DNA from: Candidatus Thorarchaeota archaeon
Lineage (GTDB): Archaea > Asgardarchaeota > Heimdallarchaeia > Hodarchaeales > Hodarchaeaceae
Direction of reading: 5' to 3'
Length of the DNA stretch: 5,767 nucleotides
Assembly (NCBI GenBank): GCA_048882505.1
Contig: JBHLRO010000060.1
Span: 1-5,767 of the forward strand
Shown piece by piece: positions 1 through 5,767 of this stretch (the stretch's first letter is position 1; each line of letters begins with the position of its first letter). Made by a program: the position numbers and the translations under genes. Below the pieces are notes generated by a model. The model was not told the DNA's origin. It did not search any database and saw only the letters and a program-made list of their open reading frames with translations.

Positions 1-777
1 GCCGAGCGTTAGTAAGACAGGTAAAAGCCGTGCATTCGGATCGGATGGGTTTAGGATTTTGAAACGACACCATCCAGTGAATCCTACGAATCTGAGAGCC
101 TTTCCCATAGCAACCTCCCGTGTCCTCAACTTGTAAGCGCGGGGATGGACATTATCGGTGACGAATTGGATGAACTGGCTTGGATCAACGATCACGGTGA
201 AGATTTCTAAGGCGGTAGCAATGCGGATCAAATTTCCGAATATCAATCGAGGTTCAGGGAACAAAGCAATCTGGGATGATGACATACGATTAAACTGAGT
301 CGGAGTGAGAAACTGAATAGAAAAATGAGGAGCTAATGGAGACGGAATTAAAGTTTGTTCGGTGTACTGGTGTCGTTCGAAGCCAACACGTTCTAAAAGA
401 AATGATTGGTTTGCAAGGGTGATGGTGGTGTCTGTAAGAGAAAGGATACCTTGGATAATCGCCTGATTGACTTGCGGATTTACAGTATTGAGCCGAAATA
501 CAACGGGACGGCCTGGATCGAGGATGACCATCCCTTGAGACGTACGTGAGAGTGGACCTGAAGGATTAAAGAGTGTAGTGACGCTATAAGGTCTCACATC
601 ATTTTTTCGATGAAGAAGTGCAGATATCTCGGGATTGGCACTTTGGATAAGGTGCAATGTGGCCCCGCGTACTTGATGCCCGGTAAATGGAGGGAGGATG
701 GTATTAGGATTTAGAGCCCGGAGATGAAACGCAAAAGTATAGGCATTAAAATTGATTTGAGTGGTTATTCCAGTCAT
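1..777 (-). CDS. cas6: CRISPR-associated endoribonuclease Cas6 (RAMP; resembles the Thermus Cas6A/COG5551-like group), 3'-truncated by the window edge
   Basis: Not in the ORF track. Hand translation from ATG (775-777) gives 259 stop-free codons to base 1: MTGITTQINFNAYTFAFHLRALNPNTILPPFTGHQVRGATLHLIQSANPEISALLHRKNDVRPYSVTTL...HFSIQFLTPTQFNRMSSSQIALFPEPRLIFGNL...KLRTREVAMGKALRFVGFTGWCRFKILNPSDPNARLLPVLLTLG. The Cas6 motifs are in the expected order: LP-x-x-x-G-x-x-x-RG, LH..RPYS, F-x-TPT-x-F, PEPRLI, GF-x-G-x-x-x-F and the L-x-x-LG helix that normally precedes the Gly-rich loop. That loop would lie just outside the window. GAGGAGG SD at 782-788. Confidence 0.92.
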   Translation of the reverse strand, partial: MTGITTQINFNAYTFAFHLRALNPNTILPPFTGHQVRGATLHLIQSANPEISALLHRKNDVRPYSVTTLFNPSGPLSRTSQGMVILDPGRPVVFRLNTVNPQVNQAIIQGILSLTDTTITLANQSFLLERVGFERHQYTEQTLIPSPLAPHFSIQFLTPTQFNRMSSSQIALFPEPRLIFGNLIRIATALEIFTVIVDPSQFIQFVTDNVHPRAYKLRTREVAMGKALRFVGFTGWCRFKILNPSDPNARLLPVLLTLG

Positions 778-781
778 GTTG

Positions 782-788
782 CCTCCTC
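782..788 (-). promoter_or_regulatory. Shine-Dalgarno motif of cas6
   Basis: Minus strand reads GAAGAGGAGGCAACATG, i.e. GAGGAGG 4 nt before the ATG at 777. Confidence 0.75.
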
Positions 789-821
789 TTCAGTTTTAGA
801 GCAGGATAGGAGTCACGAGAT

Positions 822-840
822 TGTTTAAAGGATTTTGTTG
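822..840 (-). promoter_or_regulatory. Candidate archaeal TATA box (with weak BRE) for cas6
   Basis: Minus strand CAACAAAATCC-TTTAAA-CA, with TTTAAA at 824-829, about 47 nt upstream of the ATG. This leaves room for a short leader containing the SD. Motif match only. Confidence 0.35.
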
Positions 841-1097
841 TTGAATCATTAAGAGACTACTCGAAATCATATTGATTGTAGGTAATAATAAACATTGCGA
901 ATGAATGGATTTTTAGGCTGGAAAACCTTACCCATTTTACTGACTATCGAATGTCCTTCTTCAAACAGCCAGGCATCGTTTAATATGGCTCTTCTATCTT
1001 ATATCTGCCTACAATGCTGATTACCGAACTGGTTACCTTGAAATAGATCAAAGATCCATCCTTAAGAAGTTCTGGGATTCAAAATTGACCTACTGGG

Positions 1098-1120
1098 AAA
1101 AAAAAGGAAATAATATTATT
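1098..1120 (-). terminator. Candidate oligo-T terminator downstream of the membrane-protein gene
   Basis: The minus strand has a 12-nt perfect palindrome AATAATATTATT (1109-1120) followed by TCC and a T8 run (1098-1105), about 110 nt after the stop at 1218. Oligo-T tracts are established archaeal terminators. Confidence 0.3.
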
Positions 1121-1217
1121 ATATTAAAGAGCATTTACAGGAAATATCGTCAAATGAAACAATTAACTCATTTCGTGTAATAGAAACCATAATTAGAACG
1201 TCATCACCCAAGATGGC

Positions 1218-2780
1218 TTATAAGGAATATATAATTAGATTTAACTGATAATCGAGATCGTAGGGGTTCCATACCTCAGTTGTTGTAGTGAAGAGTTGTG
1301 TGACAGTGGACCCGTTCGGGGCTGTAATCACGTCTTCGACAAAGGAAATTACAGGGGTAATACTTCCAGACAGATTGGCAAACTCCCAAGATTCGTAGTT
1401 AGGGAGTACAAAACTGCTTGGATCTTCCTTATCACTCCAAAGCGATCCCCAGTCAACCATTATTTCTTGATAGGGAAGATAATTGTCTTCTAAGGAGGGA
1501 AACACGTCCGATACACGTTTGAAAGAGAGAGGTGAACCGAAATATCCATCCGTGTTGGTCTCAATCCATTGCGAACCTGGAAACGACATTGTGTCCGCCC
1601 ACCTTATGGAACGAGTCTGGTTAGCAAGGATGGCATGTTCAAACTTCTCCATACTACTATTTTCCGTTAATAAAGAGTCGGAGTTAAGAATTGGAGTTAA
1701 TCCGAGTTCGGAGAAAGGGGAGTAAAGATTATACTCCGCAGCCTGAAGGATCCCCCAATATGTGTCCTCCCACTGTGCACTATCGACTTGCCAATTCAGT
1801 CCCGTACTCGCATAATGGTTGAAGACACGGTTTTTGACTGCAGTTACCAATTCTGGGGAAAGTCCATCGATCAAGTCCAACATGTGCAAGGCTTCGATAG
1901 ATTTACGAATTGTCCCCCACCAATCGATGGTTCGGGTATTCTCAACCATAACCTCCTCACTCTTCGTGATCTCCGTCCCATTGACCGTTTCAGTGGTGTT
2001 AACCACCTCGGTGGTATAATGGTACTCATCTACCCGTTGTCTCATAATGAAAGCGTTGATGTGTTGCTTTTCTAACGGTGAGAGGAGACTGGATGCGTTT
2101 AGACGTTGCTGTGTTTCCAATGCATAGAAAGTGTCCTGCCAGTTGGGATCATTCGTACCTCCAGCGGTGAACCCGCCCGCCCCAAGAGTCTCTCGATAAA
2201 GTTCCTTTACTCGGGAGGCAATCAAATCTTCTAGAACAGGTTCATTCTTCTCTTTTCCCGCCGCAATCGGGATGGCGGAATTAAAAAATAATAGGAATGC
2301 CAAACCACCTAGGATTATGAGTTTATTACGAGGACGGGCTCGTACGCCCTCCAAAGAACGTCCAAGTGCCTCTTGACGAGATCCCTTACTTAGAAAATAT
2401 AGGATCAGAAAGAGAACCACTGGAACAACCAAGATCACGCCCCCAAATGGGACAATTACCGCTCCAAGGGACTCTAGGGACCATATGAAAAGTCCGAAAC
2501 AGGTTAAGTATACCGCATAAAGAGGTAGCTTTCGATGGAGGAGTTCCTTCCACGGGTCTGGAGGCGACCTCATTATTAAGAACACCAAGACTGGTGGTCC
2601 TAAAAGCATTAGACCTAGGAGGGATATTGAAGGATTTAAGAAAAAAAAGAATAGGCCCAATGTGATTACCAAGAGGGGATATTTTGTTGAATAAGGGGTT
2701 TTTAGCTCTTTTAAAGGCGCCTTATGACCCCTATTGCGAACAGATAAATTTTCATATTCTAAGGTGTGATCTATTGGCAT
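1218..2780 (-). CDS. Multi-pass membrane protein with a large, probably extracellular, prenyltransferase/squalene-cyclase-like alpha-helical repeat domain (function unknown)
   Basis: The track ORF 1218..2852 starts at a TTG just past a terminator. ATG 2780 (MPIDH) has GGAG at 2787-2790 at good spacing and is the more likely start. About 5 hydrophobic segments lie in the N-terminal ~150 aa. Then come repeat-like motifs GGFTAGGTNDPNWQDTFYALETQQRL, DWWGTIRKSIEALHML and SAQWEDTYWGILQA, which resemble the GGF..DTY/FYAL pattern of the PF00432 family. There are 7 N-x-S/T sequons after the last TM segment. Confidence 0.8.
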   Translation of the reverse strand: MPIDHTLEYENLSVRNRGHKAPLKELKTPYSTKYPLLVITLGLFFFFLNPSISLLGLMLLGPPVLVFLIMRSPPDPWKELLHRKLPLYAVYLTCFGLFIWSLESLGAVIVPFGGVILVVPVVLFLILYFLSKGSRQEALGRSLEGVRARPRNKLIILGGLAFLLFFNSAIPIAAGKEKNEPVLEDLIASRVKELYRETLGAGGFTAGGTNDPNWQDTFYALETQQRLNASSLLSPLEKQHINAFIMRQRVDEYHYTTEVVNTTETVNGTEITKSEEVMVENTRTIDWWGTIRKSIEALHMLDLIDGLSPELVTAVKNRVFNHYASTGLNWQVDSAQWEDTYWGILQAAEYNLYSPFSELGLTPILNSDSLLTENSSMEKFEHAILANQTRSIRWADTMSFPGSQWIETNTDGYFGSPLSFKRVSDVFPSLEDNYLPYQEIMVDWGSLWSDKEDPSSFVLPNYESWEFANLSGSITPVISFVEDVITAPNGSTVTQLFTTTTEVWNPYDLDYQLNLIIYSL

Positions 2781-2866
2781 TTCAATCTCCATCTGAACTT
2801 TGCATGACTGTTCCACGCGATTTCGAACAAGTCCGTTACGAAAGACATCCAAACTGTCTGAAAGTT

Positions 2867-2914
2867 AAAAAAACAATGGGAACGAATTTGTCTCCTTCGA
2901 GACAAAATTGTTCC
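2867..2914 (-). terminator. Hairpin plus T-tract, likely terminator of the LRR gene
   Basis: Perfect 8-bp stem TTTGTCTC (2887-2894) / GAGACAAA (2899-2906) with a 4-nt loop. It extends through two bulges to GGAAC (2879-2883) / GTTCC (2910-2914). On the minus strand it starts 14 nt after the LRR stop and is followed by CATTG and T7 (A run 2867-2873). Confidence 0.7.
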
Positions 2915-2927
2915 TTATACCCAAAAA

Positions 2928-3683
2928 TCAATTCGTTGAGGAAAAGGTCACGACATCCCTATTATTGGTTATTACCCTATGATAATGGTCGGGATCTCCG
3001 GTGTATTCTGTCACAGAGGGAATTAGGATTCTTAAGAACCGATTGAGAGGATGAGGGGGCGGATTCGGGACAATCACCGTTTTTAAGGTTACTGGCACAT
3101 CGTACCCAATATGACTATGTAGGTAGATGCGGGTCAGGTTGGGACAGGTGAATAGGGGACTAATGTCTAACTCAGCAACCTGATTCGCAAAAAGCGAAAA
3201 GCTTTTGAGCAAAGGATGGTGAGCGAATGGGGTCAGGTCTACAGTCTGCACCCGATTATAGTTAAACTCGAACTCCTCCAGGGCAGGCCACGATTGAACG
3301 ATGGAAAAATCGAATGTATCGATTCTGCTATTAGATAGATTAAATCCCTTCATGTGTTTGCACTCCCGTAAGACCGTCACATCAAATTCAGTCAAGGGGT
3401 TGTCCCCCCATATCCCGAAATTCTCAAGGTTTCGACAACTGCTCAATGCCTCAAGTTCCGACAACTGGGTAACCCCTGAGTGCATGAGGGATATGTAACG
3501 CACCTTATTATAGGGAGGATGCTTGAGACCCTTGAGTGAAATCAGTGGATAGGGCGTGTCTCCCCACACGAACTCACTTTCATCGGAGGGATCATACTGG
3601 CCAACTTGTAGTTCCAACCATGACCCGTCATCCGACAAACGAGCAATTTTGGTTAAGTCCACAGGAGTCTGCATGAGATCCAA
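2928..3683 (-). CDS. Leucine-rich repeat protein (251 aa)
   Basis: Five full 24-25 aa LxxLxLxxNxLxxxDLxxLxxxxx units plus a partial sixth (aa 61-189), e.g. LEEFEFNYNRVQTVDLTPFAHHPL / LKSFSLFANQVAELDISPLFTCPN. TTG start with GGAGGG SD at 3690-3695. No signal peptide or TM segment is visible. Confidence 0.9.
   Translation of the reverse strand: MDLMQTPVDLTKIARLSDDGSWLELQVGQYDPSDESEFVWGDTPYPLISLKGLKHPPYNKVRYISLMHSGVTQLSELEALSSCRNLENFGIWGDNPLTEFDVTVLRECKHMKGFNLSNSRIDTFDFSIVQSWPALEEFEFNYNRVQTVDLTPFAHHPLLKSFSLFANQVAELDISPLFTCPNLTRIYLHSHIGYDVPVTLKTVIVPNPPPHPLNRFLRILIPSVTEYTGDPDHYHRVITNNRDVVTFSSTN
3117..3503 (-). repeat. LRR array at protein level (5 full units of 25, 25, 24, 24 and 24 aa, plus a partial unit)
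   Basis: Units begin at V61, L86, M111, L135, L159 and L183 of the 251-aa protein. The repeats are degenerate at DNA level. Confidence 0.85.
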
Positions 3684-3791
3684 CCTAATCCCTCCAACAT
3701 CCTTATTTAAATGTTCCTATAGGTCTCAACTGATCAGATCTATGGTTCTGTTTCTAGTTTTTACGCGGATCAAAATAACCACTTTGAATTT

Positions 3792-3808
3792 GGTTATAAA
3801 TTTCCTGT
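3792..3808 (-). promoter_or_regulatory. Candidate BRE-TATA promoter for the LRR gene
   Basis: Minus strand ACAGGAAA-TTTATAA-CC, with TTTATAA at 3794-3800 directly preceded by a purine-rich BRE-like run. A second candidate, TTTAAATA, lies near 3704-3711, closer to the start. Motif match only. Confidence 0.45.
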
Positions 3809-3982
3809 AATTTCGCTATCCCGACTCTCCTCGGATGTGTAGGTTCACATTAAACCGCGATGGCTAATGAAATGAAAGACCCAGACCGTTTGGGGCATTT
3901 TCCGAAAAGAGCACGAGTATTTTATTTTCGTTTATAATCTCCTAAGCCTCTTAATCGCGTGAGCTTCCACGTTTTACCCGAA

Positions 3983-5767
3983 TCAAACAACAGCTGTGGC
4001 TTGGTCTAACGCCGCCTTACCACCATTTTCTTGCGCAATCTTGGACATAGCCGTAACTACCTGGGCGAACTTTTTGCCTTCCGCCGCAGACATCCATTCG
4101 ATGATGAATCGATTATCATCAATATTCTGCTTTTTCATCCAACGGCGAATCTTTTTCTCCCGTTTCAATGCCCAATCGTTACCAGAAATGTAGTGGCAGT
4201 CTTGTGGATGACAACCAGTCAACATAACTGATCCTGCGCCTTTTTCAAAGGATCTCTTGATGTAATCAATATCGACACGACCGGAACACATGGTTCGGAT
4301 AATTCGGGTATTGGTGGGGTATTGAATTCGAGAAGTACCTGAGAGATCGGCGCCTGCGTAAGAACACCAGTTGCAGGCGAAAATCATGACTTTTTCTTCG
4401 GCATTGTCACGCATAGCGATGTCAATCTGTCGGAAGATCATTGCATCCGTGAAATTCATCATGGTGATACAGTTTTTAGGACAGTCTGCTGCACATGTGC
4501 CGCAACCCTTGCAGAGGACGGGATTGACGCTTGCTTTGATTTTTCGTTTTTTATCTACAGTAATAGCCAAGTAGGGACATCGTGTGGCACAAAGCTCGCA
4601 TGCGGTGCATTCATCGGTATCTACAAAGGCATAAAGGGGTTCAACATTGAATTTGCCTTTGGTAATAAGTCGCGTGACTCGACCAGCCGCGGCGCTTGCT
4701 TGAGTTACGGTTTCTCGGATGTCTTTAGGAGCTTCAGCACCGCCTGCGATGAAGATTCCATCGCTAGGAGTATCCACGGGCTTCAGTTTTGGATGTGCCT
4801 CGATGTAAAAACCATCAGGATCTCGTGAAACCGGAAACGGAATTTCTGTTTTGTTTCCTTCAGCACCGATTGACAGAACAACCAGATCAAAATCCTCTGA
4901 TACCAGCGAACCTTGCATCACTGCTTCCACGGTAATCTGCAGATTATGGGTTTCTGGATTTTCTTGTATCTGCGCGGGGCGTCCTCGAATATAACGCACT
5001 CCTTCTTCCCGAGACCGTGTATAGAGCGCTTCAAAGCCTTTTCCAAAGGCTCTGATATCCATATAAAAGATTGTAACCTCTACATCGGGCCAATGTTCCT
5101 TGATAAGCAAACTATCCTTGATGCTCTCCATACAGCAGAAATTGGAGCAATATGGGTTATGACGAACGTCTCTTGAGCCTGTACAATTGATAAAGGCTAT
5201 CTTCTTGGGACGTTTAAGATCAGAGGGACGAAGTAGGTCTCCTTCCGTAGGTCCCGCGGCATTAATCAATCTCTCAAATTCCAAAGTCGTTATTACGTTT
5301 GGATAGCGGCCCCACCCATATTCAGGAATCTTCGATGCGTCAAATACGTCAAAGCCAGTGCTAATTATGATAGATCCAACTTTGTATGTGTAGGTCTTTT
5401 CGCTATCTTCGTAAATGATCGCTTCTTTATCGCATTCCTTGATACACTTTCCACACGCCAATGGAGAAAGACCCAGACAGTTCTCTTCATCAATGATATA
5501 ACTGGCAGGGACAGCTTGAGGATATGGGATATAAATTGCTTTCCGCCATCCAAGATTTCCAGAATATTCATCTATAACATTCACCGGACAAATATCCACA
5601 CACTCATCGCAAGCCGTACAAAGGTCTTCGTCTACATATCGGGGCTTTTTGGTAATTGTGACCTCAAAATTTCCAACGTATCCATCGATTCGGGTTACTT
5701 CCGCATTAGAAATTAGATTGATATTCTTATGGTTACCCACGTCAGCCATTTTTGGGCCAAGAATGCA
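3983..5767 (-). CDS. hdrA: Heterodisulfide reductase subunit A-like FAD/Fe-S protein fused to a C-terminal MvhD (hydrogenase delta, [2Fe-2S]) domain; 5'-truncated
   Basis: The frame stays open to the edge (5767: CILGPK-MADVGNH, the HdrA C-I-L-x-P-K-M motif), so ATG 5749 is internal. It contains an inserted ferredoxin (CTACDECVDICP...CLGLSPLACGKCIKEC), TLEFERL, the cluster motif CTGSRD..YCSNFCCMESIK, FYMDIRAFGKGFE, AHPKLKPVDT..GIFIAG..PKDI and a C-terminal ferredoxin (CTACELCATRCP, CKGCGTCAADCP). The MvhD motifs FACNWCSYAGAD, RTMCSGRVD and GCHPQDCHY follow. Confidence 0.95.
   Translation of the reverse strand, partial: CILGPKMADVGNHKNINLISNAEVTRIDGYVGNFEVTITKKPRYVDEDLCTACDECVDICPVNVIDEYSGNLGWRKAIYIPYPQAVPASYIIDEENCLGLSPLACGKCIKECDKEAIIYEDSEKTYTYKVGSIIISTGFDVFDASKIPEYGWGRYPNVITTLEFERLINAAGPTEGDLLRPSDLKRPKKIAFINCTGSRDVRHNPYCSNFCCMESIKDSLLIKEHWPDVEVTIFYMDIRAFGKGFEALYTRSREEGVRYIRGRPAQIQENPETHNLQITVEAVMQGSLVSEDFDLVVLSIGAEGNKTEIPFPVSRDPDGFYIEAHPKLKPVDTPSDGIFIAGGAEAPKDIRETVTQASAAAGRVTRLITKGKFNVEPLYAFVDTDECTACELCATRCPYLAITVDKKRKIKASVNPVLCKGCGTCAADCPKNCITMMNFTDAMIFRQIDIAMRDNAEEKVMIFACNWCSYAGADLSGTSRIQYPTNTRIIRTMCSGRVDIDYIKRSFEKGAGSVMLTGCHPQDCHYISGNDWALKREKKIRRWMKKQNIDDNRFIIEWMSAAEGKKFAQVVTAMSKIAQENGGKAALDQATAVV

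Follow-up and report, generated by a model that had tools for sequence, protein, structure and literature searches.

The stretch of DNA analysed here, referred to as the window, is an entire contig (C60, 5,767 bp) of a MAG (G000) made up of 83 contigs and 4.32 Mb, which is 94.6% complete with 3.7% contamination, and whose host is a Heimdall/Hod-type Asgard archaeon, in agreement with the Asgard-like genome suspected in the original prediction. All four genes of the contig are carried on the minus strand (Table 1) and cas6 runs off base 1, so that what appears as the "left" of the window is in fact the downstream side of cas6, together with an assembly break. The left edge of the window is this break, and not the boundary of a locus. 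On the upstream side of cas6, the 440-bp AT-rich spacer, the membrane protein, the LRR protein, and the HdrA described in the original prediction were all confirmed.

Table 1. Coordinates of the features of the window (C60) and of contig C61 of the same MAG.
Feature	Contig	Coordinates	Strand	Remarks
cas6, first 259 codons	C60	777..1	minus	ATG at 777-775; contig end cuts off 3' part
Spacer, 440 bp, 34.5% GC	C60	778..1217	minus	between cas6 and membrane-protein gene
Predicted membrane protein, 544 aa	C60	1218..2852	minus	~5 hydrophobic segments, residues 58-199
LRR protein, 251 aa	C60	2928..3683	minus	LRR_4, 39.5 bits
Island boundary	C60	3949..3979		imperfect 31-nt copy (24/31) of hdrC-like RBS and first codons
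hdrA (HdrA2-type)	C60	3983..5767	minus	5' part cut by contig end
Perfect repeats	C61	1-37 and 77-113		37 nt
Degenerate terminal repeat	C61	151-187
VapB	C61	348-569
PIN/VapC	C61	556-963
Three degenerate repeats (mini-array)	C61	1064-1251

The cas6 gene and its upstream region

The gene at the edge of the window encodes a genuine Cas6, as judged from its profile matches, its homologs, and its predicted fold, which upholds the identification made in the original prediction. The protein scored 29 bits against PF10040 (cut-off 25), 26.5 bits against PF21350, and 72.3 bits (E 1e-20) against the generic Cas6 model of PADLOC, whereas the Cas6b models of PADLOC gave a far lower score of 18.6 bits. With hmmscan, the TIGR01877 profile returned an E-value of 7.9e-10 at 39.5 bits, which is under the trusted cut-off of 58.65. 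Homologs numbered 464 at E<=1e-3, with a typical length of 260-290 aa, and the best relatives in the databases, found on contigs of ~1 kb, are 47-49% identical to the window Cas6. Given identities of at most 49% to anything in the databases searched, this Asgard Cas6 is divergent at the sequence level. The metagenome search for related loci using the Cas6 alignment returned no confirmed locus.

The AF2 model of the truncated protein (pLDDT 86.4, pTM 0.79), together with Foldseek, points to two tandem ferredoxin-like (RRM) domains, and the top 30+ Foldseek matches in the PDB were all Cas6 chains, with a TM of 0.73 for 4C9D. A histidine, His56, lies in an LHxxNxxRPYS motif, is invariant across 12 sequences, and aligns with the histidine of KLHEA in TtCas6B, which, from the TtCas6 literature, we take to be catalytic. 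At the other end of the protein, the alignment indicates that some 23 codons before the stop are lacking, as the homologs run on for ~23-30 more residues, and the contig ends at residue 259, directly before the C-terminal glycine-rich loop. In 11/11 aligned homologs, a G.KR.AG.G motif follows directly after the truncation point, with the loop taking the form NVGxKRTAGxG.

No notable ORF, Rfam match, or sequence resembling a CRISPR repeat was found in the spacer ahead of cas6, and Rfam returned no matches on C60, C61, or C55, the last being the contig with the cas1 and cas2 genes of the MAG. The Shine-Dalgarno sequence that had been proposed for cas6 is present as GAGGAGG at 782-788, 4 nt ahead of the ATG, and a T8 tract at 1098-1105, ~115 nt past the stop of the membrane-protein gene, could act as the terminator of the transcript of that gene. 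The proposed TATA box, on the other hand, was rejected: the TATA-like TTTAAACA at 822-829 is a 7/8 match, and 10 such sites occur in the window, against 14.8 expected by chance. A promoter of its own, and thus the independent transcription of cas6, is nevertheless plausible, given the length of the spacer, the T8 tract, and the Shine-Dalgarno sequence.

An insertion in the hdrA-hdrC operon and the CRISPR array of C61

The conserved chromosomal gene hdrA, whose product is 96% identical to that of the closest species, G016 (92% at the nucleotide level), anchors the contig in this organism, and it continues from C60 into C7. Where contigs of this MAG overlap at their ends, they share exactly 77 nt, and overlaps of this kind join the right end of C60 to the right end of C7, and the right end of C61 to the left end of C43. 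On their left sides, by contrast, C60 and C61 both terminate in dead ends, of which the MAG has 77 among its 166 contig ends, and no overlaps of 12-76 nt were found that would link a dead end of C60, C61, or C55 to any other contig end.

In G016, DNA resembling C43, hdrA, and DNA resembling C7 follow one another on one contig, and an hdrC-like gene begins ~12-18 nt past the hdrA stop. The homology of the window to this genome breaks off exactly at the hdrA stop, at position 3985, and neither positions 1-3984 of the window nor positions 1-~5571 of C61 have any counterpart in G016. Given the 77-mer joins and this synteny, window 1-3984 and C61 probably represent the two flanks of one insertion. 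On these sequence comparisons, the insertion into the hdrA-hdrC operon is lineage-specific and carries cas6: none of 48 related hdrA loci has cas6, the LRR, membrane-protein, or NurA-like/HerA genes, or cas1 within 6 kb.

The cas6-bearing insertion in the hdrA-hdrC operon is bounded by an imperfect direct repeat of 31 nt (24/31), whose intact hdrC-like counterpart is located at C61 5576-5606. The genes of the membrane and LRR proteins (1218-3683) travel with cas6 on the insertion. The 544-aa membrane protein matched no Pfam, NCBIfam, or PADLOC family and has no ortholog in 21 other genomes of the genus; it is cargo of the island rather than a cas gene, and the LRR protein is likewise cargo. 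The assembled portions of the insertion showed no integrase.

On what is probably the other flank, base 1 of C61 is the first base of a 37-nt CRISPR repeat, GTCACAGAAGTAGTTCCTCATTAAAGAGGATTGAAAT, whose 3' end is ATTGAAAT. The vapBC pair sits inside the array and splits its main end (1-187) from the degenerate mini-array (1064-1251), which is followed, on the opposite strand, by genes for a HerA ATPase and a 498-aa NurA-like protein, and then by the start of hdrC. No other set of CRISPR-like repeats was found in the MAG. Three k-mer candidates for CRISPRs, for which at least 3 exact copies were required, proved to be coding repeats, and the array of C61 escaped that criterion.

When C60 and C61 are set as flanks, the array is co-oriented with cas6 and its degenerate trailer end points away from it, from which it follows that the leader must lie in the gap. 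The start of C61 at an exact repeat boundary would be explained if the older spacers were common in the population and the newer ones differed, which would account for the break on the C61 side; the array repeats do not explain why cas6 is broken near its 3' end. A hairpin of 5 bp, which stops 7 nt short of the 3' end, is possible in the repeat, but it is weak (-6.6 kcal/mol, z -1.4) and does not fold significantly better than shuffled sequence. Scans of genome and metagenome contigs for the repeat, exact or degenerate, gave no matches, and the two spacers had no exact match in viral contigs and no self-match in the MAG.

Adaptation genes, relatives, and the search for effectors

The adaptation genes of the MAG are found on a further contig, C55, at whose left end a DUF2797-like gene precedes the genes of a single Cas1 (232 bits) and of a Cas2 that is truncated where the contig stops. 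This contig is a dead end on both sides, and no DNA counterpart of it was found in G016 or in four other genomes of the genus. Adjoining the DUF2797-like/cas1/cas2 genes, positions 2734-6798 of C55 hold genes for an RHH/DUF5678 protein, a Bax1-like protein (DUF790), and a ResIII/XPB-like helicase, the last of which runs off the contig.

Genes of the DUF2797-like/cas1/cas2(/cas4) type recur close to other components in the relatives: in G038 the operon lies ~2 kb past the end of cas6, in G024 it follows cas6 directly, in G307 it is ~6-7 kb away from a cas6 that runs convergently, and in G023 a NurA-like/HerA pair adjoins DUF2797-like/cas1/cas2. Given this, C55 probably belongs to the same locus as cas6. 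In G023, two tandem cas6-like ORFs of 289 and 346 aa (C161 5394-7386) are both matched by the window Cas6.

The repeats of the relatives are equally informative. Arrays stand beside the Cas6 homologs of G038, G024 (two arrays), G058, and G043, with 37-nt repeats of the form GTYRCA...ATTGAAAT at a period of ~76 nt, and the C61 repeat is of the same family as these repeats beside related Asgard Cas6. Within the genus, this Cas6 recurs in just one other genome, G012 (36% identity), where cas6 adjoins a gene that shares 65% identity with the NurA-like gene of C61, and where a repeat 81% identical to that of C61 has the same stem. This genome also has an isolated mini-array of two repeats and one spacer (C361 2818-2931), located on a 4.5-kb contig with no recognised cas gene.

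The neighbourhoods of the Cas6 homologs, which the original prediction had proposed to compare, also include effectors. An effector module is found within 10 kb of the cas6 homolog in 6/6 relatives for which 7 kb or more of context is available: type I-B (Cas8b, Cas7b, Cas5, Cas3b) in G307, I-B-like modules in G033 and G027, and type III-A-like modules (Cas10, Csm2-5) in G038, G043, and G116. In most relatives, the effectors are located upstream of cas6 and share its strand; as unrelated genes are found in this place in the window, the present locus is either arranged differently or incomplete.

An interference complex was not found in the binned contigs of this ~95%-complete genome. The Pfam searches of the binned contigs for RAMPs, Cas10 palm2, Cas7, and Cas5d were all negative, as were the tblastn, phmmer, and HMM searches with the I-B and III-A effectors of the relatives over the 16,702 six-frame ORFs of the MAG, and an HMM from the relatives detected no Cas4. 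The TIGR01877 profile search of the genome missed the window's own cas6, despite its hmmscan E-value of 8e-10, so negative family searches are weak, and local HMM searches with positive controls were therefore added. These HMMs, built from the relatives only, recovered exactly one cas1, one cas2, one cas6, and one DUF2797-like gene in the MAG, which indicates that the method works at this evolutionary distance.

Two further signals emerged from these searches. One is a weak Csm3-like match on C24. The other consists of matches to PF22590 (Cas3 C-terminal domain) on C7 and elsewhere, which were rejected as generic helicases, given that the family also occurs in 14/14 control genomes. Contig C7 also has a cluster (L041, G000:C7:22000-41000, at 5094-13599) with a DEAD helicase of the MrfA/Hrq1 type bearing an MZB zinc domain, unknown proteins, and a PD-(D/E)XK-like protein. 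The same cluster encodes a 299-aa protein 24% identical to the product of the gene downstream of cas6 in G012, and is possibly a further defence island.

Either the effector genes lie in the gap, unassembled or unbinned, or the genome lacks them. The smallest contig of the MAG is 2.5 kb in length, shorter pieces having been dropped, and unbinned accessory contigs are missing from it.

A probable fragmented locus, its alternatives, and known systems

The reading that we favour, and hold to be likely, is that cas6 forms one flank of a single fragmented CRISPR-Cas locus carried on the hdrA-hdrC insertion, where it would be an ordinary Cas6 acting on the C61 array. On the sequence evidence, C60 and C61 would lie on opposite sides of a single gap. 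The order would then be hdrA, LRR protein, membrane protein, 440-bp spacer, cas6, gap, array, vapBC, degenerate mini-array, HerA and the NurA-like gene (on the opposite strand), and hdrC. Within the gap one would expect, at a minimum, the missing ~70 nt at the 3' end of cas6, the leader, and that part of the array which varies between strains, very likely also the DUF2797-like/cas1/cas2 operon of C55, and perhaps an effector operon. An arrangement in which cas2 reads towards the leader is the usual one. In this locus, Cas6 would presumably bind the repeat hairpin (UCCUC-loop-GAGGA) and, by analogy with its family, would cleave 8 nt before the 3' end of the repeat, yielding crRNAs with a AUUGAAAU 5' handle.

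Several claims of the original prediction can be placed in this framework. The lack of a cas or array neighbour stands within C60 only, given the array on C61, the cas1 and cas2 genes on C55, and the dead ends of these contigs. The proposal of a CRISPR-Cas module beginning at the left edge is borne out insofar as cas6 reads into the gap and the probable far side, C61, starts in a co-oriented array, but the edge itself is an assembly break. It had also been held that a canonical type I or III operon and array immediately to the left would make this an ordinary start of a cas operon: an array is there, and no effector operon is visible, since that stretch is unassembled. In a similar manner, the genome-wide listing of arrays and cas genes, also proposed at the time, yielded one array and one each of cas1, cas2, and cas6, but no effectors on the binned contigs.

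The alternative that survives best is a module without effectors, consisting only of cas6, the adaptation genes, the array, and NurA-like/HerA, in which interference would have been lost, as in a decaying locus, or would be supplied in trans, for example by ARAMP. It would agree with the lack of any Cas10, RAMP, Cas7, or Cas5 match in a MAG of this completeness, with effector searches that were negative where the same method recovered cas1, cas2, and cas6, with upstream genes that are no cas genes, and with an array whose trailer is degenerate and interrupted by vapBC. We nevertheless consider it unlikely, given that all six relatives with sufficient context have I-B or III effectors close to cas6, that the gap may be of any size, and that contigs below 2.5 kb and unbinned accessory contigs are absent from the MAG.

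In its more specific form, this alternative would see a complete module of cas6, DUF2797-like/cas1/cas2, array, and dead-NurA/HerA whose crRNAs serve the type-III-derived ARAMP in trans, ARAMP being known as an array-less CRISPR derivative of Asgard archaea (PMC8730458). The weak Csm3-like match on C24 points to ARAMP cassettes, which are not, however, tied to crRNAs, and the chance of such a module is slim. If it were true, the module would provide a source of guides for the "guide-less" Asgard systems.

The pairing of C60 with C61 itself must also be weighed, as the link is indirect, with no read pairs or graph edges joining the two contigs. They may not be the flanks of one gap if cas6 were located at a separate site or on an extrachromosomal element, or if two strains had contributed the flanks. 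The missing graph edge, the many dead ends, the contamination of 3.7%, and a break that falls within cas6 and not in a repeat would all be compatible with this. It is, however, very unlikely, as an exact 77-mer links C60 to C7, the hdrA of C60 is 92% identical in nucleotides to that of the sister species, C61 is linked in the same way to C43, the anchors of C60 and C61 are adjacent in G016, and a partial copy of the 5' end of hdrC lies at the C60 boundary.

Finally, a stand-alone Cas6 that acts in trans on distant arrays or processes hairpin RNAs unrelated to CRISPR, as the original prediction had entertained, is barely credible: the absence of cas genes within 5 kb upstream, the long spacer and Shine-Dalgarno sequence of cas6, and the location of the closest homolog in G012 on a 3.4-kb contig, flanked by genes not recognised as cas, lend it some colour, but the contig stops within cas6, which hides whatever lies downstream of the gene, the single array of the MAG probably shares the insertion with cas6, its repeat is of the family that accompanies Cas6 proteins of this clade, the MAG also has one cas1 and one cas2, and the G012 neighbour is a CRISPR-linked NurA-like gene.

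The cas6, cas1-cas2, and array are each present in a single copy, and the partners of cas6 (the array and cas1-cas2) are spread over other dead-end contigs of the MAG. The apparently solitary cas6 at the edge of the window is, in the present case, an artefact of assembly, which calls for caution in readings of this type.

Among characterised proteins, the closest comparisons of the window Cas6 are with Thermus thermophilus Cas6B (TTHB231; PDB 4C98/4C9D) and Streptococcus thermophilus Cas6 (6FJW), which have the same double ferredoxin/RRM fold as that predicted here, with Foldseek TM values of 0.73 and 0.66, respectively. A profile built from 12 Cas6 homologs for comparison with the structure database reached E-values of 1.5e-16 for 4C98 and 1.1e-22 for 6FJW, although the window Cas6 is only 17-21% identical to these proteins. 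It also differs from them in that its G-rich loop is absent from the contig, and in that its host is an Asgard archaeon.

The Asgard I-B loci (G307, G033, G027) and III-A-like loci (G038, G043, G116) have Cas6 proteins 26-35% identical to that of the window, with the effectors beside cas6, mostly immediately upstream and co-oriented. Unlike these loci, cas6 in the window is preceded by the membrane protein, the LRR protein, and hdrA. I-B operons of the Haloferax type begin with cas6b, and an order of this kind, with cas6 first, would suit the "locus head" of the original prediction, if the effectors sit in the gap.
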